The position numbers and the translations under genes were made by a program. Below are positions 3,656 to 46,412 of a DNA stretch of 64,000 bases, one piece after another (the stretch's first letter is position 1; each line of letters begins with the position of its first letter). The notes under the pieces were generated by a model, which had not been told where the DNA came from, made no database searches, and saw only the letters and a program-made list of their open reading frames with translations. Source of the stretch: Paraspadella gotoi (taxonomy: Eukaryota; Animalia; Chaetognatha); NCBI GenBank assembly GCA_051294375.1, contig CM119270.1:260713-324712 (forward strand), written 5' to 3'.

Positions 3656-3712
<57 letters not shown>

Positions 3713-7409: not shown

Positions 7410-7930
7410 TCCTTCGTTCGCTTCCTTCGTTCGTTTCCTTTCGTTCGTTTCGTTCGTTCGGTTCGTTCGTTCGTATCGTTCGGGTTTTCGGTTTCGTTCA
7501 TCGTTAATTCGTTCATTCATTTCATTCATTCATTCATTCATTCATTCAATTCATTCATTCATTCATTCATTCATTCATTCATTCATGTTCCTTGCGTTCG
7601 TTCGCGTTCGTTCGTTCGTTCGAGTTCGTTTCGTTCATGAGAGTCGTTAAATTCGTTCATTCATTCATTCATTCATTCATTCATTCATTCATTCATTCAT
7701 TCATTCATTCATTCATTCATTCAATTCATTCATTCATTCTGTTCATTCGTTCGTTCGTTCGTTCGTTTCAGTGTCCCGGTTCGTTTCGTTCCATTCGTTA
7801 ATTTCGTTCATATCATATCATTCATTCATTCATTCATTCATTCATTCATTCAATTCATTCAGGTTCCCTTCCTTCGTTCGTTTCGTATCGTTCGTTCGGT
7901 TTCCGTTCATTCGTTAATTCGTTTCATCAT
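7410..7930. repeat. (TTCG)n/(TTCA)n microsatellite block (copy at 16140-16520)
   Basis: Read directly from the sequence. Confidence 0.95.
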
Positions 7931-8700
7931 TCATATCATTTATTACATTCTTTAATTCATTTAATTAATTCATCGATCATATTTAATCAAATCAAAAATG
8001 TAATCAATTTAATCGCTCACCCAATCACCTAATGAATAAATTAATCAAAATCCAAAAATCAAAAAAACCAATGCAAATCAATCATCAATAATCAAATTAA
8101 TATATGACACCTTGGTAATCCGTGATTATTTTCACGGTGGTGGTTGAGAGAGGCGCACTTCCGCTGGAGGCGCTGATCGATTCTGACAAGTCAAAAGAAC
8201 AAAAGGAAAAAACAACAAATGAAAGTTGAAGAAAAAAGAAACAAAGAAAACAAATGAACATCGAATGAAAACGAATGAATGTTTAAGAGACAAAAAACGT
8301 AAACTTTTTTTGGAGAAAATGTTTTTCTCACTTCTGTTAACTTTTCCATCTCTCTCTCTTCCTTTTCTCTCTCTCTCCTCTCTGCTCTCTCGTCTCTCTC
8401 TGGCATCCTCTCTCCTCTCTCAGTCTTCTCTCCTCTCTCTCCTCTCTCTCTTCTTCCGTCTCTCTCTCTCTCTCCTCCTCACCTGAGTTTCCTTAATGCC
8501 AGTGAAAGTCCAACGCGTCTCGGGCCATGAACAACGTCTCCGCTTTGCTGTCTCAGAAATTTGTCCTCGAAGAACGGAAAAAAGAAATTTTAAGGCCGCT
8601 ATTTCGCCATCCAAATCACCCATTTTAGCTTAATTCAGAAGTTTTTTTAAAATTTGAAAACAATTTATCAGTGTTTAGAAGGATAGGGTCCCGGTTAAAG

Positions 8701-9349
8701 TAGAGCCAAACTCGTCATGGGGTGGGGTCAGAAATTTGATTTTGGGAACTTTCCAAATGAATGTTTGTTCTTCAATACATTTCTGAGAAAACTTTTCATG
8801 GAGCAAGATTTTCTAAAATGGCAAGGAAGCATTAAGTAAATTAATTTTTTAAATATTTAATTTAATAGATAAGATAAATGTCAAAAATTTTTTTTTGATT
8901 TTTTGTATTTTTAAAAAGCAAATTCAATAGCTATGTAAGTTATCTAACACAAAGTATAATTCTTTTTTTCAAAATATTTTGATGATAAGTGTTGTGTTTT
9001 AAAATTGAGAAAAACCTTAAAAAATCATCCATCATCATTCATCATCCACGATGATTTTAGCTAGTTTTTACTAATTTTTAGTAATAAAACATCAAAAAAT
9101 TTTAAAAAGTGTAAATTATATTTTTTGCTTAACTTTTTAAGATCATCAGAATCAATTAAAAAAACTTAAAATAATCCCAAAAAAATTTTTTAACATTATA
9201 TAGCAATAATAATAATATTAATTAGCGAATTACTCATGGTTCAGAACATTTTGCAAAAAAATTATTTAACGACAATAATTAATACCAAATTAATGGATTA
9301 ATGTTAATGCTGTTCCCATTAAAATTTGAAATTTGGTCGGCTACCGCTA
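8701..9349. mobile_element. Second copy of the hAT-like MITE (inside the exact duplicate)
   Basis: Identical to 505-1153. Confidence 0.5.
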
Positions 9350-9470
9350 GTTTTAAAGTTTGGGGTTAATGGACTTCGTTTGCGATTTAAGGTGAAGAGA
9401 ATGTAGGTTATGGATAAAAGGTTTAAAGGGTTCAGGGGGTGGCTGTGGGTAACCCTCCCGGTGGCTGTGG

Positions 9471-11376
9471 TAATTCCTACCCCACACGGGATTCTCCAAC
9501 TGGATTCCTGCCCACACGGGATTCCTCCCACGCGGGATAACTCCCCGTGGGATTCCTCCCAACACCGGATTCCTTCCCACACGGGATTCCTCCCCGCGGG
9601 ATTGCCTCCCACACGGAATTCTCCCCAGGAATTCCTCCCACACGGGATTCCTCCCCATGGAATTCCTCCTTCCATAGAATTCCTCCCACACGGGATTCCT
9701 CCACACGGGATTCCTCCCAAAGAATCCTCCTTCACGCGGGATTCCTCCCACACGGGATTCCTCCCATGCAGGATTCCTCCCACACGGGATTCCTCCACAC
9801 GGGATCCTCCGACGTCGGGAATTCCTCCCACAAATCGGGAATTCCCATCCACACGGGATTTCCTCCCACGCAGGGATTCCTCCCACAGGGCGGATTGCCT
9901 CTCCACATGGATTCGCTCCCACACGGTATTCTCCCCCACAACGGGATTTCCTCACACTGAATTTCCCTCCCACACGGCGGGATTCCTCCCACACAGGATT
10001 CCTCCCACAATGGATTCCTTTACCTCCCACATGGATTCCTCCACACTGATTTCCTCCCACAGGGATTACTGCCCACACGTGATTCCTCCACACGGGATTC
10101 CTCCCCTTAAAATTGTGAATTAACTTTCTTGTTGCATGTTCTTGTTGGTCAAGGAAAAAAATTGATTCATTACAAATAAAATTTTGTGTGTGGGTTAGGA
10201 AAGTATAATGATAAAGCTGGATATAAAATTTTTTGATGTAATCCGTAGTTGTGGAAAAAGAGTTCTTAGAAAACCAAAAGACACATTTATTGATTGACCA
10301 ATAATGCCAATTGAGCAAAAAATATGCCAGTTGAACCAACATTCTGCAGGTTGACGCAAATTATGGCATTGACCAAATGTATGCCTGTTGACCAAATTAA
10401 TCTCAGTTGACCAATTTTGTCAAGTTGACCAAGTTATGCCAGCTGACCCATGTGGGAGGAATCCCGCTCGGGAGGAATCCGTGTGGGAGGAACCTGTTGG
10501 TGGAAATCCCGCGTGGAGGAATCCGCATGGGAGGAATCCACGTGGGAGGGAATCGGCATGGGAGGAATCGCCCACGTGGGAGGAATCCCGCATGGGAGGA
10601 ATCCGTGTGGGGAGGAATCCCGTGTGGGAGGAAATCCCGCGTGGGAGGAATCCCGCGTGGAGGAATCCGTGTGGAAGGATCCCGTGTGGGAGGAATCCCG
10701 CTGGGAGGAATCACGTGGGAGGAATCCCGTGTGAAGGAATCCCAGCCGTGGGAGGAATTCCATGGGGAGGAATTCTGTGGGAGGACCTCGTGTGGGAGAA
10801 TCCGCGTGTGGGAGGAATTCCTTTTGGAGGAAAATCCCGTGTGGGAGGAATTCTTTTGGGAGGAATCGCCGTTTTGGGAGCAATTCCATTGGGAGGACCT
10901 TGGGAGGAATCCCGTGTGGGAGGAACCCGTGTGGGAAGGAACCCGGCGTGGGAGGAATCCCGCGTGGGAGGAACCTGTTGGGAGGAATCCCAATGGAAAC
11001 CGTCTAATAATTTAATCGAATCCTTTAGTTCTATTCTAAATTTAATCCTTTTAGTCTAGATTCTAATTCTAATCCTTTAGTGTATTACTTATCTAATCTT
11101 GAGTTAATTCTAATCTAATCCTTTAGTCTAATTCTAATCTAAATCCTATAGTCCTAAATCCCGCGTGGGAGGAATCCTGTTGGGAGGAATGGTTTCCATT
11201 GGGATTCCTCCCAACAGGATTCCCTCCCACGCGGGATTCCTCCCACGCGGGATTCCTCCCACAGGGTTAAATTAAAGGAATAAATTAGAATTAAAGACTA
11301 AAGGATTCGATTAGAATTAGACTAGGATTAGTTAGAATTAAGATCTAAAGGATTAGATTAGAATTATTAAGGATAG
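9471..11376. repeat. Duplicate of the inverted 16-bp satellite block
   Basis: Identical to 1275-3180 at offset 8196. Confidence 0.9.
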
Positions 11377-11851
11377 AGTTTTTGGGTTAAAACCAAAAAA
11401 ATTTTTATATAGTATTGAAGTAAGAAGATCATTTATCATGTATTTTAGTTAAATAATAAGATTGGAAGATGAAAATAAATTGGAGCCGCTATTTACAAAA
11501 TATTGCAATAGTTTGAGAGAGAGCAGAGACAGAGAGAAGAGAGAAAAGAGAGAGAGAAAGAAGGGAGAAGAGAGAGATAGAGAGAAGCGCCGCATCCGAT
11601 TAAAGCGGGTAACACTTTATAAACTTTTTAACATTGCAAGTATGTATTAAAAAAATGATCTTATTCCTGATATAATCAATTGATTTATAATAAATCTTTT
11701 TCCAACTCGACAGAATTCGTAATATCCCCAAAAAGGCCTCAGAAACAAAGCGAACCGGTCGCGCGTCGTTGGCTATGGCAAACGTCCCCTCCACAAATGC
11801 ATAAATGCTTTAATTACGAGAAACCGAGAGAGAGGAGAGGAGAGAGAGAGA

Positions 11852-11912
<61 letters not shown>

Positions 11913-13214
11913 AGATTGATTAATTCGTTAATCAGACAAAACCGATGTCGTTTTGTTGCGCCGATCGGGTTCCAGTTCCCTCTATATCCGGAAGCGAAAT
12001 CAAAACAAATGAACTCAAGAGAGAAACATGGAATTCCCTTGGAATATTTCGGAAAATGCCGAGATTCACTCTCTCTCTGTAGGAGAGTGCGAGTGTTTCT
12101 CTCATTAGCTCTCCTCTTCTCCCTCCTCTTCTCTCTCGCTTCTCGTCTCTCTCTCTCTCTCCCTCCTCTCTCTCTCTTGCTCCCCCTCTCTCTCTTTCTC
12201 TCTCCTCTCTCACTTTTCTCTTTTTTTTTTTCTCTTCTTTTTATTTTTTTACATAGTTTAAATAATACAAACTTTTTTGTTAGTTTGTCTATGTCAAATC
12301 TTTTTGTCGCCTATAAACATTCCTCCGTGACAGAATGGCTCAATGAGTAAAAGAATCGGTTAATGACCATAATTTACCGGGTTCAATTCTAACCCGTTAC
12401 CTACCCTGAGGGAAGCGTGACCCTCTTAATGGCGTAACGACCCTGCAAACAAAGGATTACTATCTAGGAAAAATCATATCATATTTTTAGTCGAGAATAT
12501 TTACTCGTTTGATTTTAAAAAAATCAGAATATTTTCAAATATATATATTTTTTTCAGTAGCTTCCTTCCATTTTTTCGTAGTTCAAATCATTTAGAAGTT
12601 AGAGGCAAAAAAGATTGCTACTTCAAATGATAAATGGCGAAAATGGCGAAAATGGCATTGCACCTCTTTTTGTGTAAAAAATTGCTATTATATCTCTCAG
12701 AAAATAGGGAAAAACGTGCAACATCAATATCAAGGCTGAAAAGAATTGCGTTAAAGATGTGGAAAAACCAGATGAATACAAGCAGTCATCGAAGCCAAGA
12801 GATGGCATAACAAATATTGAGAATGTTTTATTTATGTTTTATATATTTTTTATTGAATAAATTAACAATTATGTAATATACTTTTGTCCTAAATAGTAGA
12901 GGATATTGAAAAAACTATGGATGTCATCTTTAGCCAACTTATCTCTTTCTCGTTCTCGTTGATGTCCATTTAAACAGGGTAAATCTTAGCTCTTAAAGAG
13001 ATGTTATTAATTTTACAAACATAATAAAAATAATTTAAAGCAAAAGATAAAAAAAAATTCCTCTTTTTGATGGGCACTCTTTTCCAGAAATATCCTATTT
13101 ATGTTTAATTTAGTTTTAACTATTATTTATAATACAACTTGTAAAATTAATCTTTTATCATCAACTTATGGATAAGGCACTTAATTGACTTAAGAGTTTT
13201 ATCCAAAACTTTTT

Positions 13215-13425
13215 TAACCCCTCTGGCAGCCAAGGAACAGGTTTTATGCTTAGAACCAAGCTTGGTGGTTGTCCAGGCCCCTAAGGTAGTTTAAGTACGT
13301 TCTCACGCTTCCCGCAGGGTAAGTATTATTGGTGATTGATTTTATACCTTTTTACTGAGCAACTGGGTCATAACAGAAAGATATATTTTTATAAGCAAAG
13401 TGAACTTGGTAAAATATACTACAAC
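13215..13425 (-). mobile_element. Family A repeat, degenerate (copy at 19690-19900)
   Basis: Minus strand reads CCCTGCGGGAAGCGTGAGAACG...GGGGCCTGGACAACC...GCTTGGTTCTAAGC. Confidence 0.7.
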
Positions 13426-14656
13426 AAACCCTATACCCAAATCCCAAACCATAATTTTGACCCCATTACCTAACCTAATCCCTCACCCCCTAACCTAACC
13501 TTTAAACCGGGATCCAAATCTACAAACTCACAAACTTAATTCCGAATTTAAAACGAAATGAGGCGCTTTGAGAAAATAAGGCCAACCTGATGCGTGTAAG
13601 TGGTTTTGATGAAGAAATCCAAGGCGTCCGTCGGCGCCTCTGGATCAGAATGGAAGATGGTTCGTCGATGCGACGAGAGAGTTGGATGATGGTAGAGTCG
13701 TTCCCAAGGATGTTGCTGCAGTGAAGGTTTGGAGAAAGAGGAGAGAGATGGGGTTCTTTCTTTCTTTCTTTCTTTCTTTCTTTTCTTTCAACTTTCCACA
13801 GATTGTGTCAAAACCCTAAAGTCGCCTTATATTTACAATTAATCTCTTTCCATCTTGTTAGTTGCGCCGCGAGTAGAGCAACTCTATAGGTCGGTCGGTC
13901 GATTGAAATTTCAACAGAAACAAATAGCGCTACCTTTTGTTTTAAAAAGAAAATATGAATAGAATAAAAGATCGAATTTGGATGCAGTATTATTCAATTA
14001 TTCAATTAGCGCTACCTTTTGTTTTAAAAAGAAAATATGAATAGAATAAAAGATCGAATTTGGATGCAGTATTATTCACGTTTTCACACAAAAATAAATG
14101 TGAAAGGAAGTCTCGTAAGTAGCAAATATGCAATATGCAAATGAGTTTTTAAAATGAGGCTCGTAAAAACAAATGAACACTTATTTCACCTTTTGCGCGA
14201 GTCTGGTCGGCATTTTGAAAGTCCTGAAGTTTCTCTCGTTTCTTCCAATAAAATCGTCGTCGTTTTGTAATTTTGGAAAAGGATAAGGATTTCTCAGTGA
14301 CTGACCGACCGACCCGATATGGTAAGGGGCGGTAAGTGTGGTCGCCATAGCTTCGGCCGGCATTGCCTATTGTGACAAAAAAAATGGAACAAAGGAAATG
14401 TAATATTTAAAGTCCATTGAATTATTTTATTTTATTTTTTTTTTTAAATTTTAATATTCAAAGATTCAACTTGATTAAAACTACGCGGAAGTTTTGAATG
14501 AAGCGATTTATTACAGATGAGTCTCTTGAATAAATAAATAATTATTAATCAATTAATCGATTATTTTGTTTGTAAAATTTACCTATGTTTGTCTAGGGAA
14601 TTTCCGAAACGCCAGAGTTTTGAAAGACTAAATTTTATTAATCCTTGCGTGCTGCT

Positions 14657-14689
<33 letters not shown>

Positions 14690-16931
14690 NNNNNNNNNNN
14701 NNNNNNNNNNNNNNNNNNNNNNNNNNNNNNNNNNNNNNNNNNNNNNNNNNNNNNNNNNNNNNNNNNNNNNNNNNNNNNNNNNNNNNNNNNNNNNNNNNNN
14801 NNNNNNNNNNNNNNNNNNNNNNNNNNNNTCTCTCTCTCGCATGAAATTCGCTTGTTGCGTTGGAAACAAGAGGCTGGAAACCCGGAGACTAGAAATGAAA
14901 AGGAAAAGGAAAGAAAGGAAAATGAAGAGAAAGGAAGAGGAAAAAAGGAAGGGAACAAAAGAAAAAAGAGCGAAGAAAGGAAGATAAAGAAAAGAAGAGA
15001 TGTTATTATATTATTATATATATATTATATTAAATCAATATTAACAATTAATCAAACTGAAAAAAAAACCAGCAAAACAAATAACGTTATATTGTTTTAT
15101 TTTCTCTTCATCTGAGTATCGAGTTTTCTCCCAAACTCTCGACCTCTAAAAAGGTCATACTCTCTCTCTCTCTCTTTCTCTTTCTCTCTCNNNNNNNNNN
15201 NNNNNNNNNNNNNNNGGGAGAGATTCTATCTGTCTATGCTATTTATCTAACTAATCTTTTATCTATCTAACAAAGACAATATTTCTTAAAGTAAGTAATT
15301 AATTTCTGTTTTTTCTTTTATCTTTTATTCTTTTATGCTATATTCTATAATTCTTTATTCTATATCTCTATCCAATATATATACTCTATCTATCTATCTA
15401 TCTAATCTATCTATCTATCTATCTACTATCTATCTAAATCTATCTATCTATCTATCTAAACAAATCAACATTTCTTAAAGAAAAAGTAATTAATTTCTGT
15501 TTTTCTTTTATTCCTATGAGATTTGCAAAGAAAAAAGTTTTATAGCCAGCCAAGAAACATTAACGTATGTATCTTCCGCAAAATAGGCAAAGTAATCAAT
15601 ATTAAAACAAACAATTTTTTTTTTAAAACCGTGAAAACTCTTGTATCTAACGCTAATTACAACAAAATCTCGCGAACAAAAAAAGTCTTATTGTTTTTCC
15701 TACTTTTTTCTCGCGACATTAACTATGTTATTGTGTTTGACCGTCGTCGTCGTCGCTTTAGCGTAGTCATTGTCGTCGTCTGCCTCCTCCTTCTTCTTCC
15801 TCCTCCTTCCTCAATCTTCCTACTCCTCCTTCTCCTCCTCTCCACCTCCTTTTCCTCGCTCCTCACTCTTCTCCTCCCTCCTCTTCTGCTTCCCCTTCTT
15901 CTCATACTCTTCCTCCTCTCTCTTCCATCTCTTCATCCTCATTTCTCATCCCTCACTCCTCCTCTTTTCCTCCCCTTCTTCTCCTCCTCTTCCTCACTTC
16001 TCTCCTCCTCCTCCCTCCCAGTTTCAAGGGCAATAAAAAGTTCCATCAGGTTTCCTCGAAAAATCCGTGAAGAGCTTCTTGCGTGTGATGAGAAGCGATG
16101 GCGAGTTTGACTTCGTGTGGGTGAAGACGCCTGAGGACAATTGTTCCTTCGTTCCTTCGTTCCTTCGTTCCTTCGTTTCTATAGTTCGTTCCTTCGTTCG
16201 TTCGTTCGTTCCGTTCGTTAGTTCGTTCTCGTTTCGTTCGTTCGTTCGTTCGGCCGGTTCGTTCCGGTTCGTTCGTTCGTTTCGTTTCGTTTCATTCGTT
16301 AATTCGTTCATTCATTCATTCATTCATGGTCATTCATGTCATTTCATTCTTCATTCATTCATTCATTCATCTCATTCATTCATGTCTCGTTCGTGCGTTC
16401 GTTCGCGTTCGTTTTTCGTTTCATGATCGTTATCGTCATTCATTCAGAATTCCATTCCATTCATTCATTCCCCCCCAAAATTTATCATTTCATTCATTCA
16501 TTCATTCATTCATTCATTGCTTTAAATTCATTTATTAAATTCATTCGATCTATATTTAATCAATCAAATGTAATCAATTAAATCGCTCAACCAAATTCAC
16601 CTTAATGAATAAATTAATCATCAAAATCAAAAAAACCAATCAATCAAAATGCAAATCAATTAATCAAATTAATTATGACCTCTGGTAAACGTGATTATTT
16701 TCACAGGGGTTGGTTGAGGAGGAGGCGCCACTTCGCTGGAGGCGCTGAATCGATTCTCGACGTAAAAACAAAAGGAAAAACAAAATGAAAGTTGAAAAGA
16801 AAAAAAGAAACAAAGAAACAAATGAACATCGAATGAAAACGAATGCAAGTTAAGAGACAAAAAACGTGAAACTTTTTTTTGGAGAAAATGTTTCTCCCCT
16901 TCGTTAACTTTTCCATTTCTCTCTTCCTTTC

Positions 16932-16962
<31 letters not shown>

Positions 16963-18024
16963 ATCTCTCTCGGTCTTCTCTCTCTCTCTCTCTCCTCGTC
17001 TCTTCTCTCTTCACATTGAGTTTCCTAAATGCAGGAAGTCCAAGCGTCTTCGGGCATGAACAACGTCTCCGCTTTGCCTGATCAGAATTTGTCCTGAAAG
17101 AAGGCGAGAAAGAAAGTTTAGGCCGTATTTTCCCAATAAAATCTCCCATTCTTAGCTTAATTCAGAAGTTTTTTAAAAATTTGAAAACATTTATCAGGGG
17201 TTAGAGATAAGGGTCCCGGTTAAAGTTTTGGGTTATGGAACTTGGTTGGCGATTAGTAAAGAATTTTAGGTTATGGATAAAGGTTTACATCTAGAAAAAA
17301 AGTTAGAAACCATTTTTAATTGAGGATATCTACTCGAAAACTTGCTCGAATTTTTTAAAAATCAGGATGTTTCAGATTCCACACTAAAAATTTCCTTTCA
17401 AGTTGCTTCCTTCCATTTTTTCGTAGACCCAACCGTAAATAGAAGTTAGAGGCAAAATAAGATTGCTACCTCAAGTGAAAAATGGCGGAAAAAATCGCCT
17501 TAGTTTCCACAACTTCTTGGTATTGAGTTATTTTGTTTTTATTGTCAAATTGAGTTAGTTATTTTTTTTTCCATTTTTTAAATTTGGTTATGCGAATAAG
17601 TACAGCCCCTCTCTTGGTTCATAAAGGTGCAATTGTAGCTCTGAGAAAAGAGGGAAAGACGTAAACAATTCATCAGAATAGACTTGGATCCCTCGTTCCA
17701 GCCATTAGCAAAATTTTTTACGGCGATACAACAAATCAAAACATTTGGTGTGTCAGCTTTAACGAGAGCATGCCCCAGACGAATGGCAGGCAGTGGTCGA
17801 TGCGAGGGAGGGGCATACCAAATTTATTGAGAATGTTTTACCCCATGTTTTGTATAATTTTTTATTGAATAAATGAACTTTTAAAAAAAAATGTTTCTAA
17901 CTTTTTTCCCTAGATAGTAAGGGTTAAAGGATTAGGTTTATTTGATTATTATTGGTGGTTAGACTAAAGGTTTAGATTAGAATTAGACTAAAGGGATTAG
18001 ATTAGAATTAGACTCAAGGATTTA

Positions 18025-18205
18025 GTAAAACACCCGCTTATGAACCATGTTACAACGGGTTAAGCGCCTCGTACTCTTAATCTGTTTAGCAAGCCAACCG
18101 TGCCTAGAACCCCGGAACCTTTTGGATGGGAGGCCGAAATGACACTTGCATCCGGCACCAAATCGCCGCTGATGAAAATGGTTGGTGGATTTTAGTCAAC
18201 CATAA
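18025..18205 (-). mobile_element. Family B repeat, degenerate copy
   Basis: CCATGTTACAACGGGTTAAGCGCC...GGTTGGTGGATTTTAGTCAACCATA. Confidence 0.7.
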
Positions 18206-18341
18206 TATCCCCAAAAGGCCAGAAACAGAAAGCGACCGTCCGCGCTCGGTTCTATGGCAACGTCCGCCTCCGACACAATGCCATAAATGCTTAATTAACG
18301 ACCGCGAGAGAGAAGAGAGAGAGAGAGAGGAGAGAGCAGAG

Positions 18342-18381
<40 letters not shown>

Positions 18382-18620
18382 AGAAAGAGAATTGGAGATT
18401 TGATTAATTCGTTAATCAACAAAAACCGATGTCGTTTTGTTTGCGCGTCGGGTTCCATTCCCTCTATCAATCGGAAGCGAATCTACACAAATGAACTCAA
18501 GAGAAATGGAATTCCCTAGGAATATTTTGGAATGCCGAGATTCACTCTCTCTGTCGGAGAGTGCGAGTGTTTTCTCTCATTAGCTCTCCTCTCGATCTCA
18601 TCTCTCTCTCTCTCTTCTCT

Positions 18621-18661
<41 letters not shown>

Positions 18662-20303
18662 TTCTCTTTTTTTCTCTCTCTTTATTTTTTTAGATAGTTT
18701 TAATAATAGCAAAACCTTTTTTTGGTAGTTTGTCTTTTGTCAAATCTTTTTGTCGCCTATAAAAACATTCCTCCGTGACAGAAATGGCTCAATGAGTAAA
18801 AAATCGGTTAATGACGATACATAACCGGGTTCAATTCTAAACCCGTTACCCTACCCTGAAGGGAAGCGTGAACCCTCTTAATGGCGTCACGACCCTGCAA
18901 ACAAGGATTACTATCTAGGAAAAATCCATATCATATTTTTAGCGAGAATATTTACTCGTTTGAATTTTAAAAAATCAGAATATTTTTCAAAATAATATAT
19001 ATTTTTTTCAGTAGGCTCCTTCCATTTTTTCGTAGTTCAAAATCAATTAGAAGTTAGAGGCCCAAAAAAGATTGCTACTTCACAATGATAAATGGCGAAT
19101 GGCGAAAATGGCATTGCCCTTTTTGTGTAAAATTGCTATTAATATCTCTCAGAAAAAATAGGAAAAAACGTGCAAACATCAAAATATCAAGGCTGAAAAG
19201 AAATGCGTTAAAAGATGTGGAAAAAACCAGATAATACAAGCAGTCATCGAAGCAAGAGATGGCATAAATAACAAATATTGAGAAAATGTTTATTTATGTT
19301 TATATATTTTTTATTGAAAATAAATTGAACATCTATGTAATAATACTTTTTTCCTAAATAGTAGAGGATATTGAAAAACTATGGATGTCAATGTCATCTT
19401 TAGGCAACTTATCTCCTATCTAAAAATATTTCTCGTTGATGTCCATTTACAGGGTAAATTCTAGCTTCATTAAAGAGATTTATTAATTTACAAGACATAA
19501 TAAAAATAATTTAAAGCAAAAGATAAAAAAAAATTCCTCTTTTTGATGGCACTCTTTTCCAGAAATATCCTATTATGTTTTAATTTAGTTTTAACTATTA
19601 TTATAATACAACTTGTAAATAATCTTTTTGTCATCAATTATGGATAAGAGCCACGTTAATTGACTTTAAGAGTTTTATCCAAAACTTTTTAACCCTCTGG
19701 CAGCCCAGGAACAGGTTTATACTTAGAACAAAGCTTGGTGGTTGTCCAGGCCCTAAGGTAAGTTTAAAGTACGTTCTCACGCTTCCCGCAGGTAAGTATT
19801 ATTGGTGATTGATTTATACCTTTACTGAGCACTGGGTCATAACAGAAAGATATCTTTTTTATAAAGAGCAAGTGTAACTATGCTAAAAAATATACTACAA
19901 AAAACCCATAACCCAAATCCCAAACGATAATTTTGACCCCAATACCTAAGCCTAATCCTCCCTACCCTCACCCCCAACCTAACTTTAAACCGGGATCCAA
20001 ATCTACAAACTCACAAACTTAATTCCGAATTTAAAACAAATGAGCGCTTTTAGAAATAAGCCAACCTGATGCGTGTAAGTGGGTTTTGATGAAGAAATCC
20101 AAGCGCCGTCGGCGCCTCTGATCAAGAATGGAAGATGGTTCGTCGATGCGAACGAAGAGTTGGATGATGGTAGAGTCGTTCCAAAGGATGTTGCTGCAAA
20201 GTGAAGGTTTGGAGAAAAAGAGGAGAAGAGAATGGGCTTCTTTTTCTTTCTTTCTTTCTTTTCTTTTCTTTCTCTTTCTTTCTTTCTTCTTTTCTTTCAA
20301 TTC

Positions 20304-20340
<37 letters not shown>

Positions 20341-23151
20341 TATACCAAAAACACATAAGATATGACAAGTTAATCTGGTCGTTTATAATGTTATTTTAAA
20401 AAATATTTTACATTTAACTGATAGGAAATGATGTCAATATTGTTGAATGTAACATTTCAAATTCAATCGACCCCACAGCCGGTTGAAAATAATCAACAAA
20501 AAAAATGGTCATTTTCCACGCCCAATTTTTAAACAAATCTGCGTCGTTTAAATCTTTTCTTTTTGGTCCACTTAAATTTTTACTTTTGCCGAGTGACTTC
20601 ATTGGTATAAAAAAATTGATTTTCTTTGATATCTTTGAACCAAAAATGATAGAAACGATGAGACTGGTATCAATATTACAACCATAATTAATGGGGCATC
20701 TTTTCCATATAATTTTTTCTCAAAATATTTCGCAACGTGATTTTCTTAAAAAATCTGGATCGAAATCTTAGTCAAAAAGTATAACAACTTTTAAAATTAA
20801 ATTAAACACACCTTTGCTGTATTAAAAAAATAATGAATATAGATTCTGAAAGAGAACAAATTTGAATTATGTTTCTGATTATAACAAAAATTTTCTATAC
20901 CTGCAAATGTTTATATAAATTACTAAGGAAAATGAATTATCATTTTGTTGAAAACCAAAAATAAAAATTCATGAAGGAACTTAAAAAACATATGATTTAA
21001 ATAATGAAAATTTAGGAGTTTCAACTTTGTTCCGCGATTTAAAAACCTACTGACATAGGGCTAAAAGGCCTATAAAAATTAATCAGATTTTTAAATTTTT
21101 GTCCAATCTTCAGGTTGCAAATTAAAACCTTTGCCATAATGCCCATTAGCTATATTAATATAACTATTTTTTATTAAAAAAAGCATAAAACAATCTTTTT
21201 TAATAACACGCCAAAGCATGTAGCTGTATGTAAAATTGTTGTTTTTTTAATTTTTTTATTATTATACAAGGCTTTATCAAAATAAAGGGGTAATTGCAAA
21301 GAAAATAGTTATTTCAGGCTCCAATATTGATAACTATGATATCAATGAATTTCTTTGTTCCCGGCAAAGAAATGTACCTAAGACATTGTAAGTTCATTAG
21401 CTTAATCTTTTATTTTATAATTTTAAAAGGGCAATGTTTGGCAAAAACAGTAAGAAAACAAAAATGACAAAAATTTTTGGAGAAAAATTTGGATTAATTT
21501 GCTATTAATTTCTTACTATGTCGTCAATTTTTTTTTCGTTAATGTGCTTTGAAAGTTAGGCTAAAACCCAACAAAATCGCGAATCATGCATGAACCGCTG
21601 TATATTTAATTGATTTATACAGTAAGATACCGCAATAAAAAAAAATTTAAAAAAGAATTCAGACCAAGCGTCGTGTTATTTTCAGTATTTTTTTTTAGTC
21701 AAGACCTTAATGGATTTTCTTTGTTCCGGCGGCGTTGGATAGCCCAACACTGCAGTTTCAGAAATCATCCATGGTTTTGTAAATATTTACTGCGCTAAAC
21801 TGGTGGCAAAAAATTGGCTAGGAACCAAATTATCAAAACCGCTTCGTTCTTTCGGATTTTTTTTTAACGCGGAGCGTCATATCTAAAAACAGTATTGACA
21901 AAAATCAAAAACAGTAATTCAGTGTAAAACTAGAACCAGCAGTAACAAGTAAAACTAAAACTATTAAAATTCAACAAAAAAAAGACACTAACAGTTTAAA
22001 ATTGACTCATAAATAAAATGTTATGAAACTAATTCATAAGACTATAAAAATATAACGTTCAAGGAAACGCTTCCAAATTTCAAATTTTTAAAACAAAAAA
22101 ACATCAAAAACAAAGACACAAACGTTTAAATGGACTCAAGACAAACAAAAACAAAACACAAAAATATAAAGCAAAACGAAAAACAACGTTAATAAAAGTA
22201 ATAAACAAAAAAAAATTAATAAAAAAAAAAAAAAGAAACAAAAAGAAAAAATATAAGCATAAATGAAAATATACCTAAAATGTATAATTATAATGTGTTA
22301 AAAGTAAAGGGCAAAACTAGATTTTTTAAAATAATTTTAATAAATCGTAAAACCGGAAAAGTAAAAAAGTGTTTAAAGTAAAAAACAAAAAAATGTCTAG
22401 TATAAAAAGTGTATAATGCGAAAATGTAATAAACGAAAAACGTAAAACGTCATGGTTTTTATTTTTAAAAGCCGTCATTATAAGTATTTACATGCTTAGT
22501 GTATAACATATACCCAAAAATTTATAATTACAAATGTGTTAAAGTAAAGGGCAGAGGGACCACAACGCTATTAATAGAAATAAAAAACTACAATCAATAT
22601 ATATATATATATATACACACATACACATATTTTTAAATAATAATCAACAGAAAGACAACTAATAAAACAAAGACGCTAAAAACAGAAAGACACTAATAAA
22701 AACAAAAGACCTAAAAACATAAAGACACTAATAAAAACAAAAGACGCTATAAAACGCTATAAAAACGCTAATAAAACAGAAAATAAAACAAAAACAAAAG
22801 ACGCTAATTAAAACAAAGAGACGCTAAAAACAAAATGAGAACGCTAATAAATACTCAAACCTATATTAATAATACAAACAGACGCTAATAAACAAAGATA
22901 TAGATATGTGGTCCCATCAATACCTGAATAAGCCAAATACCCAATACGAAGATACCCTCATTGATTAATAAGTTCCCAATAGCCAATTTTAACCTCCGTT
23001 TAATTAAGTTTCCCCACTCTACAGTCCCATTCTGGTGGTGCCCTATCACCAACAGATAAATTAAAGGCTGTTGCTTTCGCATGCGCCTCGGTGGCTCAGT
23101 GGAACTAATGCACCAATCCCAATGTGCGTCCCTGTTCGAGCCCTGAGGTTG

Positions 23152-23234
23152 TCATAGTAAGAAAGTGGATGGACCGGGTAACCGCCTGTAGGCATGGGCC
23201 TACTTTGCCAGATCCAAAAGCTCTGACTACATGA
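23152..23234 (+). ncRNA. Putative P5-type twister ribozyme (family C, copy 1)
   Basis: P5 TCAT(a)GTA(a)G/CTACATGA; GA-TGGA (T1'); TAA cleavage motif; GC (T2); P3 GTAGGC/GCCTAC; P4 CAGA/TCTG; L4 TCCA-(A)AAGC. Confidence 0.65.
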
Positions 23235-23613
23235 ACATGCTGTCTCGCTGTCGCCAACGAGGTGGACACCGCTGCACGGGTGTGGCGCCCTGTAACCTCC
23301 TCCTTTCAATGGTGAGCCCGACTGATCCCGAACACGCACCCGGCATGATATACTCCTCTGCCTTGATGTGGGTTTGAAGCACACAGCCTGCCACTCAACG
23401 CAAAGGCCACCAGCAATGAAGAGAAGGTTCACGAAGAGACATGCGCTTCCATCCCCTGCTTCGTAACTCTCATATGCGAGAGTCCTGGGGCGGCTGTCTG
23501 GTGTCCCTATCACCAACAGATTAAATTAAAAGTGTTGCTTCGCAGCGCGCTCGGTGGCTCAGTGGGACTAATGCACCAATCCCAATGTGCGTCCCTGGTT
23601 CGAGCCCTGAGTG

Positions 23614-23693
23614 TCATGTAGAAAGTGGGATGGGACCGGTAACCCGCTGTAGGCATGGCCTAATGCCAAGATCCAAAGCTCTGGACTACATGA
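23614..23693 (+). ncRNA. Putative P5-type twister ribozyme (family C, copy 2)
   Basis: Perfect P5 TCATGTAG/CTACATGA; TAA-CCC-GC; P3 TAGGC/GCCTA; L4 TCCAAAGC; P4' TCTGG. A few 1-bp indels relative to copy 1. Confidence 0.65.
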
Positions 23694-25236
23694 ACATATA
23701 GCTGTCTCGCTGTCGCACGAGGTGACAACCCGCTCGGGTGTGGCGCCCTGTAAAACCAAGCCCCTCTTCACCACATCATTTAATGTGTTCCAACCTAAAG
23801 TCGCCTATATTTTACAATTAATCTCTTTCATTTGTTAAGTGCGCCGCGAGTTAGAGCACTCTATAGTCGTCGTCGGTCGAAATGTCAACAAGAAACAAAA
23901 TAGCGCTAAAACCTTTGTTTAAAAAAGAAAATATGAATAGAATAAAAGATCGAATTTGGATGCAGTATTATCAATTAATTCATTAGCGCTACCTTTTGTT
24001 TTAAAAAGAAATATGAATAGAATAAAAGATCGAATTTGGAAATGCAGTATTATTCAATTATTCAATTAGCGCTACCTTTTGTTTTAAAAAGAAAATATGA
24101 AATAGAATAAAAGATCGAAATTTTGGATGCAGTATTATTCTCGTTTTCACCACAAAAATAAAATGTGAAAGGAATCCTCGTAAGTTTAGCAAATATGCAA
24201 ATATGCAAATGAGTTTTTAAAATGAGGCTCGTAAAAACAAATGAACACTTAATTTCAACCTTTTGCGCGAGTCTGGTCGGCATTTTGAAAGTCCCTGAAT
24301 TTCTCTCGTTTCTTCCAAAATCGTCGTCGTTTTTGTAATTTGGAAAAGGATAAGATTTCTCATGACTGACCGAGCCACCGATAATGGTAGGGGCGGTAAG
24401 TGTGGTCGCCATAGCTTCGGCCGCATTGCCTATTGTGACAAAAAAATGAACAAAAAGGAAATGTAAATATTTAAAGTCCATTGAATATTTATTTTTAATT
24501 TTTTTTTTTAAAATTTTAATATTCAAAGATTCAACTTTGATTAAAACTACGCGAAAGTTTTGAATGAAAGCGATTTATTACAGTAATGAGTCTCTGAATA
24601 AATAAATAATTATTAATCAATTAATCGATTATCTTTGTTTGTAAAAAATTTACCGTATGTTTGTCTAGGGAATTTCCGAAACGCCAAGAGTTTTGAAAGA
24701 CTAAATTTATTAATTCCTTGCCGTGCTGCTGCTCTCTCTCTCTTCTTCTCTCTCTCTCTCAGTTCTCTCTCTCTCTCTCCTCTCTCTCTTTCTCTCTCTC
24801 TTCTCTCTCTCTCTTCTCTTCTTCTCTCTTCTCATCCTCTCTCTCTCGTCTCCTTCTCTCTCTCTCGCATGAAATTCGCGTTGTTGCGTTGGAAACAAGA
24901 AGGCTGGAAACCCGGAACTAGAAATGAAAAGGAAAGGAAAGAAAGGAAATGAAGAGAAAAGGAAAGAGGAAAAACGGAAGGGAACAAAGAAAAAAGAGGC
25001 GAAGAAAGGAAGATAAAGAAAAGAAGAATGTTTATTATATTATTATAATATATATTATATTAATTCATTTAACAATTAATCAAACTGAAAAAAACCAAGC
25101 AAAACAAATAACGTTTATATTGTTTTATTTTCTCTTCAATCTGAGTATCGAGTTTTCTCGCCAAACTCCTCGACCTCTAAAAAGGTCATACTCTCTCTCT
25201 CTCTCTTCCTCTTTCTCTCTCTTTCTCTCTCTTCTC

Positions 25237-30560: not shown

Positions 30561-31774
30561 GTCATAATTTTCCTTTGTGATCACGTGACCCCATTACAAA
30601 CTGTCACGTGACCTAAAAGATCACATGAACTCGGAATCACGTGAAAATTTAGGTTAAATTATTATCAGGTTAAGCATTCACGAGTTTACTACGTGATAGC
30701 TTAAGGTCAAATCTTTCTCGTCGTAAAAAAAGATTTTAACCCCAAAAAAACTATATTTTCGTTTTTACTTTTTCAATTGTAAGAAAATGAAGAGTGCGTG
30801 TTGAAAGGGCAAGAGAGAGAGAGTAGAGAGAGAGAGAGAGAGAGATGGAGGAGAGCAAGAGAGAGGGAGAAGGCAGTAGAGAGGAGAGAGAGAGGAAGAG
30901 AGAGAGAGAGAGAAGAGAGGAGAGAGAGATAGAGAGAGAGGAGAGAGAGAGAGAGAAGGAGAGAGAGAGAGAGGAGAGACGAGAGAGAGGAGGGAGCAGA
31001 GAGAGAAGAGAGAGAGAGAGAGGAAGGGAGAGAGAGAGAGAATTTTTTCATTAATGAGGAAAACAAATTGTAACGTTTGGAATACATTGATATCACATTG
31101 AAATCACATTGCTATTGACATGACATTGACATGACATTGACATGACATTATTATTGACACGACATTGATATTGATATTGACATAGACATTGCATAGGCAA
31201 AGAGAAATCATAAACCCTCTTGAGTCTTATTGCTAGATATGTAGACTGATAGAGTCTTGATCGAAAGCTTGGGCAAAAAAAATCTCGCAAACCCACTAGG
31301 CATACTAAGTGTGGGAGCTATGCACACCGTTCTATTAATTAGATCCAAATTTCCGAAAAGAGAAACCATTTTCTACAATTAGCAAAGTCGAAATGCCCCT
31401 CATGTTGAGCGATATAAAGTTCATAGATATTTATAATTTTATTCCAACACGTTGACAAACCTTAGAGCAAAAAAAAAAAAAAGAGTTGGGGCATGAAAAG
31501 GTTTATGAAGACGTTTAATAACGCCAAACCAAGTTGTCCTTTCATCAACCGCATTTTTCTTTTCATAATAAATACAATGAGAAGAACTGGAATGAAATCC
31601 GGCATCAGAAGGCAAACGAACCACCCGAACCCACTGAAAAGCGGTTCATTGCGTTGCTGCTCTGAACGGTAACTCGTTTTTGCTGATGAGACTAACTGGA
31701 CGGGAAAAACTGAACATGTGACCAAGTATTTAGATGATGATAGGAGCTGATCTGAGTCTAAGACTACGATCCGT

Positions 31775-31915
31775 ATCTTCTTTGCACGCCTCAGCAGATA
31801 TGGAACGGGTCCTGGGCTTGGAACCAGGCTTGAGGATGGGATTGAAACCCGGTACCTAGTGGTCATGAGCTGATGGCTTCACTCAACGAGATTAAAAAAC
31901 GGTAGGGTCATGCCA
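31775..31915 (-). mobile_element. Family A repeat with internal deletion
   Basis: GGGTCCTGGGCTTGGAACCAGGCTTGAG joined directly to GGGATTGAAACCCGGTACC...GGTCATGAGCTGATGGC. Confidence 0.8.
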
Positions 31916-35817: not shown

Positions 35818-37937
35818 TACCTCTCCTTCCCATACCCCGGATAGAACATCTCCAGCAACCCTCCCAATCTCTCATCCACTTCTCCATCAAACTCTTTCCC
35901 TAAATAAAACCTACACATCGGACACCCGAATGCCTCAGCATCGAACGCCCGCCGCAGACACCCGCGGCAGACGAGATGTCCGCAAGGCGTCCTCACGGGC
36001 TTCGCCAAGAGATCCAGACAGACCACGCAATTGAAGAGACGCTGGACGGCGTCGAGAAAGGAGCGCCGGCCCGAAGCGGCGCCGGCGGCGAGGGCTTCGT
36101 TCCACGAGGCGGCGTTGTGGCGGTCGGCGGCGATTTTGGCGCCGACGGTGGCGGTTGGGTGGAAGGGTGAGGTTTTTGTGGGTAAGGACTTAAGGGGAGG
36201 AAGGGGAGAAAGTGTATGGGTAGGTTAATTAGTTATTAGATTATGAAATTGATACAACCAATATATAAATTATCCATTCATTTAATAAACAAGCTTTCTT
36301 GCCCCTGATTTGGGACAGGCTTTGGTGGTTTAAGGCCTCCATCACTCTGACAAGATAATGACATAGCAGGTCCCTTCAAACTTTCAATCAAGACTCTCTC
36401 ACAGTCTCATTTATTCTCTCCCAGAGAACATGGCTTCCCTAACAAAGATGTGGTACAATACTTCAAAGAATGTTTCTATTGAATAACGGGTCACTCACTT
36501 ATGTGATGCGTCACTTATGAAAACTAAAAATTGATGAAATTTTAAAGATTTTATCCAACTAAGTCCCTATTTTTTATTTTTAATAGTTATACAAAGAGTT
36601 AATTATTAAATAAAGATTATATTATTAATCCATTTTTCTTTATCTTTTTAACCTTTAAATTCCTTGGGCACCATTTTCTGAAAACGCCCGTTTTCTGTTC
36701 TTACTTTTACTATCCCTATCCCTAACCTACTAACATAATCTTTAAACTTAAAGATTTAATTCTTAATTGATATTGAAATAGTATAATTTTAGAAAATAAA
36801 GCTACCCTATTCTTTACCCCCTTTCCCTCTACCCCTATGCCCTTCCTTACCCCTTTCTTCTCTCCCCACCCTTCGGGGTATTCCATCGATAGTCCCAATT
36901 CCTTTATTCTTTTATTTCCTTTTGTTGTCCAAGGGGCAGAGGAGGCATCGTCTCTTTTTAACTCGAATCTCCAAACGCGAAATCCAAAGCGACTTAATTC
37001 GGGCCAATAGCGGGTCACCCGGTAGATCCCGTCATATCTGAAAAAGTGAATAAAAATTTACTAGTTTTGGTATCTTGAACTTGATCCTAAACCTTTAACC
37101 TTATCTTTAAATTAAAAAAAATTAATTCAATTCCGAATTTAAGATAAAATGGGGCATTCTGGGAAAATAATGCCCCCCCCCGTCCTTTACAATTCTCGCC
37201 TTTACCTGAACCCTTCCTTGGGCGCGAACTTGGAATACTTTCTCGCTTTGTGTCCCCTACAGACCCGCACTGGCTTGCCCCTTCGCCAGTTGAGGGCTGA
37301 GGCGCCTTTGTGAGGGTCGACCGGAGCGGCACAGTTGCGGGCGAGGGCCAAGTTGAAGCCTGTCAGGGTCTGATCAAAAGTTTGAGGGGCGGTTCTTTTA
37401 AAAAGAGGAGGAGGAGGGGGAAGGGGTAAGAGGGGGAGGGAGGAAGAGGAGGAGGCGGGAAGGCGGAAGAGAAAGAGGAGGATGGATGAGAAAAAATCAA
37501 TATAGGAATCAATCAATCAATGAATATATGAATCAATCAATCATTAAAACAATCAATCAATCAAATCACCTCTTATTCCCCGTCTTCAAATCTTTCCCTC
37601 CACTTCCCGTAAAGACGAAAACGTCTCCTTCGTCAACATCGTCGTCGTATCCCCCAGCGAGGACGAGCGATTGCGCTCCAGTAGAGCTGGAGCCGGACAC
37701 TCCACTAACGGGGGGGCGGTGGACTCCGGCTTCGGAGACTTGGATACGGTAGACCCAGGAGGAGCCGACTTCGACGCCTTGGAGGGAGACGGAGAGGGAG
37801 AGGGAGAGGAAGGGAACGATGGGAGGGAGAAGAGAGGAGGGAGGGGAGAGGGATAAGGGGGAAAGAGGTAGGGAGAGAGACAGGGTGGGAGAGAGGGAAA
37901 GAGGAGAGAGAGAGTGAATGGCGAGAGAGAGAGACAG

Positions 37938-38010
<73 letters not shown>

Positions 38011-41000
38011 AAGGAGCGAGAAAGAATATTGAATTAAATTCATTTCTCATATTTCTAGAAATACCGATAAAAAACATTTCTAATAAAAACGATACCAACC
38101 GACAACGAAAAAAATAACAAAAACACTTTGACACAAAATCGCTAAAACAACAGAAACGACAACAACAACAAACTCCACCACAACCATCTGCAATGACAAC
38201 GCCACCAACTGATACCCAAATCCTCTTCCCCCTCCCTACTTCTCACCCGGAATGGGTCCGAAATGATCCTTGGCCACGACTGTGCATTCCTTCGTTCTTC
38301 CTGCTGTCGCCATTCCTCTTCCCCAATCCCGGCTGCAGGACCGCGTCCGCGACGGAGCAGCGGCCTTTCTCTTCGACGCTGTTAGAGCTGCAGAGCCGCG
38401 GACGACGCTGGCTGCGTCGTTGCGGCAGGAAGGACAGAACCAATCAGAGTCGAGATCGTTGTCAGCGGCGGCGGTCGGTGATGGCTGATGTGAAAAAATG
38501 ATAATACAAATCATAGTAATATTTATGTATTTTTTAAACAAAGTTGAAAATTTAATGGAACACTCTTTTTTTTTAACTTTTCCCTGTAGATAAGGCGCTG
38601 AATGGGCTGAAAATACTTTTGTACCCACTCTGAGTGGGCTACTCAGTAGCAATAGAATGGCTGGTAGGCTTGTTTTCCAGGCCCCCAAAGTAGCTTACGG
38701 CCGTCCTCTAATCCTAAACATTATCCTTTAATCCTAAACATTATCCTCTAATCTCTAAACATTATCCTCTAATCTTTAAACATTATCCTCTAATCCTAAA
38801 CCTTATCCTCTAATCCTAAACCTTATGCTCTAATCCTAAACTTTATCCTATAATCCAAAACATTATCCTCTAATTCAAAACCTTATTCTCTAATCCTAAA
38901 CATTATCCTCTAATCCTAATCAATTTCCTCTAATCCTAAACATTATCTTCTAATCCTAAACCTTTTCCTTTAATCCCTAAACATCATCCTTTAATCCTCA
39001 ATTCGAATTCTTAACCTAACCCAATTTGATCTCATCTTTAAAATTAAAAAAATTAATTCAAAGCTGAATTGGGGCAGTTATGGAAAGTATGACCCTTAAG
39101 AGCATTACAGAAGATTTTAGAAACTCAAAAGATGGAATCAAATGGAACCGGATGGAATCAGATCATAGACTCGGAGAGAAATCACCGAAAATGGAATCGA
39201 GCTCTCTGATTGGTCAAGAGCCAGATAGAACCGGCCAATAGGCGGATGGGCTTTGTTCAACCTCGAAATTCTATTCACGTCTCTGATCCACTTGTATTGT
39301 ATAAATTGAATTGGTTTTTGTACTTGATCATTCTGTCCAAAAAATTGACACCGTCTTCATGTCTCTTTTCTCTAAATAATTTCCACTTTGGATTCATGTT
39401 GAAATCCCTATCTTCTTACTTAAATGTGGTGGCAGCGGTGGAATTCGAACCCACGCCTCCAAAGAGACTGAAATCCCAGTCTTCTAACTTAAATGTGGTG
39501 GCAGCGGTGGGATTCGAACCCACGCCTCCGAAGAGACTGAAATCCCTGTCTTTTTACTTAAATGTGGTGGCAGCGGTGGAATTCAAACCCACGCCTCCGA
39601 AGAGACTGAAATCCCTGTCTTTTTACTTAAATGTGGTGGCAGAAGTCAGATTCGAACCCACGACTCCAAAGAGACTGAAATCCCAGTCTTCTAACTTAAA
39701 TGTGGTGGCAGCGGTGGGATTCGAACCCACGCCTCCGGAGAGAATGATCCTTTTATAAAAGAGAAACGATTCCTTTAAAAACATTATCAAGCTCAATTGA
39801 AAGAAAAGCCAGATACTCTGAGACTGTGAGAGAATCTTGATTGCAGAGTCTTGCCATGTTATCTTGTATGAGGGACGTGGGCCATTCATAGCCTGACCAA
39901 ATGTATTAATTGAATATTGTTTGTATCAATTTCGTTGTCGTTTGTATAGAAATCGAAACGAAAAAACGAAAATTAGTCTGATAAATTAATTTAAGTCAAG
40001 ATGTTTTCTCATGATATATTTTTTATATATTAATTTCGAAGTGATATATTTATTATATATTAATTTCGAAGTGATATATTTTTATATATTAATTTCGAAG
40101 TGATATATTTTTTATATATTAATTTCGAAGTGATATATTCTGTTTCCGAAACCCATTGTCATAAAATTTCAGTCGGAAAATATATTATTCCGGTAATAAA
40201 AAAATTAGAAAATCGGTAATAACGAGATTCGATTTAATTTTCTTTTTTCGCCAAAATTTGAGACAAAAAAAATGGGAAAAACGAGATAAAATCGTTGGAA
40301 CCAAAATGTTTACGTTAAATCGAACACGAAATCAATTTCAAGTGTCTGAGTGATGTCTTTCTGTCTGTTCGTCCATCCGTCTGTCAGTCATTTACGTTTA
40401 GATCTGGATATGTTGCGCGTTGGTTTGAAAATAATCGGAATTTTAAATTAATTGAAATATGACTTAACGCAATAAAATTATATATTTTCAATCTCCCTGT
40501 CTTAATCTGAAAATACTTTTAAAAAAGAGTTATATAAATTGTAACAATGTCATACACCATTAGAACTGTAATATTTTGACTTAATTTCTGATTGGAATAA
40601 AATTGTTTACACAGAGAATAAACGATTGGGATAAGATAATTTTGCTTCATAAAATATTCCCAAAAAAATATTATTACACTTTTGAATTAAACCGCGGTTC
40701 CTGTATTTTTAAATTTTACAGATTGATTATCTTTTTTAAATTTTACAGATTGATTATCTTTTTTAAATTTTACAGATTGATTATCTTTTTTAAATTTTAC
40801 ATTACATCTCGATGTGGTGACGAAAATGTTTGGAAAAATAATGGTCCAGTTTACGTTTGTCTCGGTCGCAACTTGCGCCACGTATGCGAACCGAGGTTAG
40901 CGAGAATCGATAAAACATATTTGACTGATTGGTAGATTTATTGGTAGATTGATTGGTAGAATGATTGGTTTATTTTATTAATGATTTTTTTATTCATTCA

Positions 41001-42160: not shown

Positions 42161-42223
<63 letters not shown>

Positions 42224-42284
42224 GTAAAGAGAGCTAAAAAGAGAGAGAGGTGTAAGAGAGAGAGAGAGAGAGGTGTAAAGAAAA

Positions 42285-42354
<70 letters not shown>

Positions 42355-46373: not shown

Positions 46374-46412
<39 letters not shown>

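Follow-up and report, generated by a model that had tools for sequence, protein, structure and literature searches.

A likely miniature LTR retrotransposon carrying twister-like folds in both terminal repeats in the chaetognath Paraspadella gotoi

A stretch of 64,000 nucleotides from the chaetognath Paraspadella gotoi (assembly GCA_051294375.1, contig CM119270.1, positions 260,713 to 324,712; hereafter the window) harbours, at positions 23030-23770 of its forward strand, a 741-bp non-coding element that is likely a miniature long terminal repeat (LTR) retrotransposon, or terminal-repeat retrotransposon in miniature (TRIM), of the Helenus type. Two LTR-like repeats, referred to as LTR1 and LTR2, each carry a tRNA-like head and a twister-like fold, and surround a short middle with a primer-binding site for tRNA-Trp. 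We regard an LTR-type architecture as highly probable from the sequence, and lean slightly towards viewing the element as an animal counterpart of the plant LTR retrozymes, in which an RNA polymerase III (Pol III) transcript would be cleaved twice, closed into a circle and copied by Gypsy-type reverse transcription. Sequence-level results presented here derive from this 64-kb window.

The element comprises 279 + 186 + 276 bp, which lies within the Helenus size range of ~0.3-1.3 kb. Similarity between the two repeats extends over 23031-23308 and 23495-23770 at 85-87% identity, with only 6 substitutions against 28 gap events; 20 of the gaps are single-base, 13 of those falling in homopolymers, and the actual copies may therefore be almost identical. 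An earlier sequence-only reading of this DNA, made without database searches, had rightly described the sequence as indel-noisy. It had also proposed a head-to-tail tandem of a 462-bp unit, which could not be upheld, as only ~277 bp is repeated, around a unique 186-bp middle for which the window holds no second copy (best other match of 23309-23494, E 0.39). The repeats stop at LTR hallmarks, namely a CA followed 1 nt later by the tRNA-Trp primer site, which argues for an LTR-internal-LTR arrangement and against a tandem.

The tRNA-Trp 13-mer at 23310 is the best match in the window, where 0.44 chance matches would be expected at two or fewer mismatches; the rough chance of such a site at that place, allowing 4 offsets and 50 tRNAs, is 2e-4. 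The motif was taken from Fig. S2 of the animal Helenus study (PMC10886601), in which it corresponds to tRNA-Trp and Gypsy-32_NVi. In a paralogous block at 11720-14688, the whole stretch from a T run near 20307 through to the LTR2 end is absent, comprising the element and 2.7 kb of AT-rich DNA; similarity resumes at 13.8 kb of the window, within ~10 bp of the LTR2 end, with TTCA in common by chance. The absence may reflect a second insertion, a deletion or an assembly effect. The block roughly supports the right boundary only and provides no clean empty site. The AT-rich DNA itself (20300-23029) opens with a run of 32 T, and neither terminal repeats nor coding matches were seen in it.

The sequence-only reading had placed a tRNA-like head before each fold, and this was borne out by the recovery of boxes A and B at both positions; these boxes (A at 23092 and 23555, B at 23134 and 23597) formed the sole A+B pairs found in the window. 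The Helenus head motif, TRGCY..YGG for box A and GGTTC for box B, is exact for both boxes in LTR2, whilst box B of LTR1 is one G short. Neither head was called a tRNA by ARAGORN or by Rfam.

Twister-like folds were sought with a descriptor consisting of G-A, three bases, a linker, UAA, a short P2, GY, a stem, and a loop with the T1 complement. The window gave three matches, with the U located at 23179, 23640 and 50154, compared to one match in 60 shuffled windows and none in 3000 element shuffles; since the descriptor was composed with knowledge of these copies, the figures show non-randomness and not function. The core features of the P5 permutation of twister are present, including the U/AA site, a catalytic G followed by A, an A-A partner, T1, T2, P3, P4 and P5. 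For LTR2, and for the 50-kb copy of a second family described below (family X), the minimum-energy structure places P5, P2, P3 and P4 around a four-way junction, with modest z scores of -1.64 and -1.65, respectively, whilst the minimum-energy fold of the noisier LTR1 is not the twister secondary structure. T1 is paired in all four aligned copies, with one two-sided change between the families (U-A vs C-G), and in this four-sequence alignment P4 covaries, as does P3 within family X. We consider the ribozyme probably active. No hammerhead core was present within the element. Relatives were sought in metagenome, viral and prokaryote collections, where only chance matches were retrieved (1 metagenome locus with just the 20-mer, 0 and 1 viral, and 18 prokaryote), and the upstream G-A and T1 partner were found in 0 of 19 chance-match loci.

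The linker is self-complementary in both families, albeit with different letters, having a CCGG core in the element and reading GGCGCU in all five copies of family X; a self-complementary core of this kind is expected by chance in 1 of 16 hexamers. The two folds of the element could pair via their linkers, each making P1 for the other.

Family X is represented by five copies (Table 1). The five copies share their first base, which lies ~33 nt ahead of the tRNA-like head; three of them end in CTCTTCA, as does LTR2, and the ends read TA...CA. None of the five starts at the head or at the predicted cut, and an A-rich tail is absent. Fixed ends without an A-rich tail fit solo LTRs better than short interspersed elements (SINEs), and the copies are, on sequence grounds, likely solo LTRs of a related element. 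The head of the 50-kb copy gave a sub-threshold Rfam tRNA match of 14.5 bits. The flanks of this copy lie in a GATA microsatellite, which weakens their value as a target-site duplication (TSD), and the copy at 4445-4574 shares a duplicated block with the 18-kb copy and is therefore not an independent insertion. Similarity between the two families is confined to the ribozyme and is weak (63 columns, 70%, E 0.026). That the ribozyme core alone can be aligned between them, with compensatory changes, argues for selection.

Table 1. Coordinates of the 741-bp element, its components and the family X copies within the window
Feature	Position	Strand	Remarks
Candidate left TSD	23026-23029	+	CCCA; right side CCAC, an imperfect 4-bp match
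5' LTR-like repeat (LTR1)	23030-23308	+	Starts TT (copy 2: TG), ends TTTCA
tRNA-like head 1	23081-23153	+	Box A 23092-23102; box B 23134-23143, one G fewer than copy 2; hairpin z -2.63
Twister-like fold 1 (P5 permutation)	23152-23233	+	Predicted catalytic G 23168; 6-nt linker with CCGG core 23173-23178; predicted cut U23179/A23180; L4 from 23213
Predicted cut-to-cut RNA, 461 nt	23180-23640	+	129 nt LTR + 186 internal + 146 LTR; from predicted cuts
Internal region, unique, non-coding, 186 bp	23309-23494	+	Single copy in window; overlapping open reading frames without Pfam match
tRNA-Trp primer-binding site	23310-23326	+	1 nt past CA of repeat 1; 12/13 matches; 16/18 with one gap (by eye)
Candidate polypurine tract, weak	23478-23494	+	Adjoins TG of copy 2; purines 9/15
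3' LTR-like repeat (LTR2)	23495-23770	+	TG...CA; end CTCTTCA, shared with three family X copies
tRNA-like head 2	23546-23615	+	Box A 23555-23565; box B 23597-23607; hairpin z -2.93
Twister-like fold 2	23614-23693	+	Predicted catalytic G 23629; linker 23634-23639; predicted cut U23640/A23641; L4 from 23672
Candidate right TSD	23771-23774	+	CCAC
Family X copy, 3' part missing	4445-4574	-	In block duplicated with 18-kb copy
Family X copy, 3' part missing	about 18044-18204	-	Catalytic G changed; in duplicated block
Family X complete solo-LTR-like copy	50024-50256	+	tRNA-like head 50057-50128; predicted cut after U50154; flanks ATAG/ATAG
Family X copy without P3-P4	58225-58425	-	Flanks AATT/ATAT
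Family X copy with internal deletions	59233-59446	-	Compensatory change in P3; flanks ATGG/ATAG

The tRNA-Trp primer site and the LTR-like ends point to propagation via tRNA-primed, Gypsy-type reverse transcription and integration, and not via a SINE tandem. In the cycle that we propose, Pol III would start at the first head (~23081) and run to the first T4 downstream of the element, at 23810. Both folds would then cut at U/A, freeing a 461-nt RNA with an internal promoter. A unit RNA of ~462 nt containing its promoter had already been predicted by the sequence-only reading, and the distance between the predicted cuts agrees with it; its SINE-monomer frame was not retained, the repeats being LTR-like around a Trp-primed middle. 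Within one transcript, the two folds may pair through their 6-nt self-complementary linkers and cut together, in which case transcripts of solo LTRs would be spared. As the cut-to-cut RNA would have no terminal repeat, normal strand transfer would be impossible, which makes a circle the likely route; an RNA of this kind, with its promoter inside, is suited to circularization, for which the ligase RtcB would be the likely agent. RtcB has been found to circularize animal retrozyme monomers in vitro (PMC7229834). The host tRNA-Trp would prime reverse transcription by a Gypsy-type partner, both LTRs would be rebuilt, and the element would be integrated with a 4-bp duplication. For the plant retrozymes, the missing R region has been put forward as an argument for a circular template that is tRNA-primed and Gypsy-copied (PMC4918200, Discussion).

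Several observations weigh against this cycle or the parts from which it is assembled. The element is known from one two-LTR copy only, itself noisy, with LTR1 starting in TT and an imperfect TSD (CCCA/CCAC), a mismatch that a one-base slip in the C run would explain. The candidate polypurine tract is G-rich but not enriched, in that 28% of the 15-mers of the element equal or better it, though by eye some wasp Helenus tracts are likewise poor (PMC10886601 supplement). Flanking 4-mers of family X match at 4/4, 3/4 and 2/4 positions. That no T4 occurs within the element carries no significance, since 1639 of 2000 shuffles were also free of it. As for an autonomous partner, no reverse-transcriptase, integrase or other retroelement domain was found by Pfam in 106 open reading frames (ORFs) of the window, the scans having covered 10 + 96 ORFs out of 173 candidates, namely those lying beyond the first duplicated block together with the long ones.

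Further such points concern the ribozyme. P2 consists of 3 pairs and a bulge in LTR2 and family X, with 2 C read in LTR1, where the consensus has four Watson-Crick pairs, and a review has warned that an altered P2 length may disrupt the twister active site (PMC5408937). Both LTRs and the 50-kb copy have A-U in place of the 'essentially invariant' G-C pair that closes P4 next to L4. P1 does not form a hairpin, and the 6-nt self-complementary linker between T1 and the cut stands in its stead; according to the same review, P1 is conserved in twister but dispensable in vitro, so dimer gating would not be required. The linker register also differs between LTR1 and LTR2 as read. Covariation totals are soft, as they derive from 4 sequences and some of the counted changes stem from the misaligned LTR1. 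The predicted 461-nt monomer of this noisy copy is no more stable in its fold than shuffled sequences (z -0.54), in contrast to the highly paired circles of retrozymes, although read errors lower scores of this kind. Rfam returned no twister match with its gathering and E-value thresholds, even at E up to 10. The two plus-strand twister folds that the sequence-only reading had located at ~23152 and 23614 thus stand as twister-like by the descriptor (U23179 and U23640, 461 nt apart as read), but are not twisters in Rfam. Given this lack of recognition and the departures from consensus in P2, in the closing pair of P4 and in P1, only the label 'twister-like' is used: on sequence grounds, the fold is twister-like and not a member of the twister class.

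The main rival is the same TRIM without a circle, in which the fold would be either a captured relic or a ribozyme that cuts in only a single LTR of each transcript, serving as a 3'-end former instead of the terminator or as a 5' trimmer, so that a terminal repeat is left for ordinary strand transfer. We consider this possible though rather unlikely. The three departures from the twister consensus and the absence of an Rfam match agree with it, as does the unremarkable fold of the monomer; from the coordinates, cutting once would retain a repeat of about 100 or 129 nt, sufficient for normal strand transfer, and by eye most published Helenus elements have no ribozyme (PMC10886601 supplement). 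Against this rival, the ribozyme core is the sole alignable part between the families, with compensatory changes that speak for selection; two identical ribozymes, one in each LTR, should both cut; and the self-complementary linker suggests cutting in pairs. A head-to-tail dimer of a tRNA-derived SINE, its ribozyme freeing a unit-length RNA as in the Schistosoma repeats or the animal non-LTR retrozymes and its second unit truncated at the 3' end, would appear alike at first sight, given that a circular template can give copies of 1.6 units. The order of promoter then ribozyme is known from Schistosoma (PMC6765202), and the polypurine tract and TSD are weak. We nonetheless judge such a dimer improbable: the primer-binding site falls exactly at the repeat end, the middle is unique, copies start ~33-50 nt upstream of the head, and those of family X lack an A-rich tail and are bounded by fixed ends, one ~33 nt ahead of the head and the other at CTCTTCA. 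Animal non-LTR retrozymes, moreover, are described without LTRs, primer-binding site or polypurine tract (PMC7229834).

Two other explanations address the nature of the repeats themselves. They might be the pseudo-LTRs of a non-autonomous Penelope-like element of the Naiad type, such pseudo-LTRs being the source from which animal hammerhead retrozymes derive (bioRxiv 10.64898/2026.07.22.740005). A larger insertion is also conceivable, as the paralogous block is without both the element and the 2.7 kb to its left. Penelope-like elements are not known to employ tRNA primers, whereas the element has a Trp primer site, and no GIY-YIG or reverse-transcriptase remnant was detected among the 106 scanned ORFs, making this explanation very improbable. 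Capture of the ribozyme from an element of that kind may still have occurred, which would be compatible with the proposed cycle. The duplication could alternatively be an artefact of reads or assembly, in a window that holds duplicated blocks of 84-98% identity with the same gap-dominated differences. An artefact would not end at CA before a primer site in one copy and begin at TG in the other, would carry flanks along, and would not be expected to recur in a second family that independently shows the same ends; it is the least credible of the explanations considered.

The window is of eukaryotic character, rich in microsatellites and noisy in indels. It contains, besides exons of other genes, those of an intron-split UHRF1-type gene (tandem Tudor, PHD, SRA and RING; 35820-48756, minus strand), which points to an animal; the tandem-Tudor exon (47113-48756) is interrupted by a long low-complexity insert. 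Local duplications of 75-98% identity, again dominated by gaps, pair 1-3712 with 8164-11908, 11720-14688 with 18203-24760, and 6417-8701 with 15225-17226, which suggests either that a tandem array was assembled from long reads without polishing or that haplotypes were left uncollapsed. A DUF3695 exon lies at 13551-13787, inside a duplicated block. At 39400-39747, each of about five tandem 69-bp units contains, on the minus strand, a tRNA-Leu-like 3' half complete with CCA; the plus strand resembles an extended Leu primer-binding site (cf. Fig. S2 of PMC10886601). A third dispersed family, whose minus strand carries box B-like words, was observed at 43472-44106, 45639-45842, 57386-57634, 61368-61487, 13189-13340, 31766-31890, 12336-12419 and 5055-5136. 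It is probably an ordinary tRNA-derived SINE, and the twister descriptor found no match in it. Loose matches to a hammerhead-core word numbered four in the window (28380, 31683 and 43476 on the plus strand, 48299 on the minus strand). A tRNA-Pyl called by ARAGORN at 52353-52431 is probably spurious, as it sits in a short imperfect tandem repeat.

No twister-bearing LTR retrozyme and no animal LTR retrozyme was found in print, as judged mostly from search listings and with subscription journals and Repbase outside the coverage. In the literature available to us, LTR elements of the design proposed here have been reported from plants alone, with another class of ribozyme. The published view is that ribozyme-bearing LTR elements are primarily a matter of plants and hammerheads, whilst animal retrozymes are without LTRs and primer sites (PMC7229834; PMC7761336; bioRxiv 10.64898/2026.07.22.740005), though one review alludes to insect elements, as yet unpublished, that bear type III hammerheads (PMC7761336). 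If the proposed cycle is true, the element would join two classes that have been treated apart, the Pol III-driven TRIMs and the retrozymes, and twister, whose known link is with non-LTR elements, would gain a role in LTR retrotransposition. The element would also offer a small system for testing the unproven claim that LTR-type reverse transcription can proceed from a circular RNA, and a dimer-gated twister of natural origin might find use in the production of circular RNA.

Of the systems already described, Helenus (TRIMp3) resembles the element in being shorter than 1.3 kb and non-coding, in having two LTRs with a box A/box B head and a primer-binding site, in its Gypsy-type affinity, and in the presence of tRNA-Trp among the primers of the wasp families (PMC10886601). 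Animal Helenus elements measure 311-1263 bp, are Gypsy-linked and generate 4-bp TSDs (Kojima 2024, PMC10886601). The P. gotoi element fits Helenus on the core features that can be examined, with the polypurine tract and the TSD and ends being weak on this noisy copy. It departs from Helenus in that most of the published LTRs end soon after box B (PMC10886601), whereas here ~160 nt with a twister-like fold follow. In the available text of that paper, ribozymes are mentioned only in the title of one reference.

Two families in its supplement, Helenus-2_SyJa and Helenus-2_SyUm from Synergus gall wasps, have an internal part that starts with a Trp primer site, a tRNA-like head early in the LTR and, by eye, an apparent type III hammerhead core in the LTRs, ~30 nt after box B, with helices I and II capped by loops that are complementary over 11 nt. 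This ribozyme would thus differ from that of P. gotoi in being a type III hammerhead and not a twister. It goes unremarked in the available text of PMC10886601, the only paper that a literature search on it yielded. In the part of the supplement that was available, no ribozyme was seen by eye in other animal Helenus LTRs; the hammerhead core word gave five matches, two in the Synergus LTRs and three in fungal sequences, and six twister L4 words gave 0, 1, 0, 0, 0 and 5 matches, none in a twister context, with line breaks in the file able to hide matches. If the Synergus reading holds, the combination of head, ribozyme and Trp primer recurs with two ribozyme classes. A broader generalization may be offered tentatively, and with more doubt than conviction: that animals own LTR retrozymes which are Pol III-driven, tRNA-Trp-primed and propagated via RNA circles, and which recruit various ribozymes (a twister variant here, hammerhead in gall wasps), the twister being an obligate dimer whose palindromic linker would allow cutting only when both LTRs are in one transcript.

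With the metazoan non-LTR retrozymes, the element shares an animal host and two ribozymes that would release a unit-length RNA, and some of their hammerheads need dimerization (PMC7229834; bioRxiv 10.64898/2026.07.22.740005). Liberation of RNA carrying a Pol III promoter and a ribozyme from tandems, the mechanism put forward by the sequence-only reading, has already been described for the SINE-like hammerhead repeats of Schistosoma, in which the promoter is likewise placed before the ribozyme (PMC6765202). Unlike the P. gotoi element, both of these groups are true tandems with type I hammerheads, are without LTRs, primer-binding site and polypurine tract, and are Penelope-linked (PMC7229834; bioRxiv 10.64898/2026.07.22.740005; PMC6765202). 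The fold shares with P5 twisters the U/AA site, the catalytic G followed by A, both pseudoknots, and P3, P4 and P5 (PMC5408937), but it is located in LTRs, unlike the T-variant twisters of S. mansoni, which lie at the 5' end of a long interspersed element (PMC8501958).

A parallel in organization is provided by the plant LTR retrozymes (Cervera et al. 2016, PMC4918200), which have a ribozyme motif in each LTR, a non-coding middle with primer-binding site and polypurine tract, a 4-bp TSD, solo LTRs and a cut-to-cut RNA that has no R region. Their ribozyme is a type III hammerhead and their primer tRNA-Met, where the P. gotoi element has no hammerhead core and a Trp primer; their circles are larger (697-776 nt in Jatropha), and no tRNA-like head is described for them in the available text. 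Plant retrozyme circles have been demonstrated by experiment and are highly paired, compared to a z of -0.54 for the cut-to-cut RNA predicted here from a noisy copy. In its proposed workings the element is therefore like a plant LTR retrozyme, but it falls outside that group by its ribozyme type, its primer and its host.

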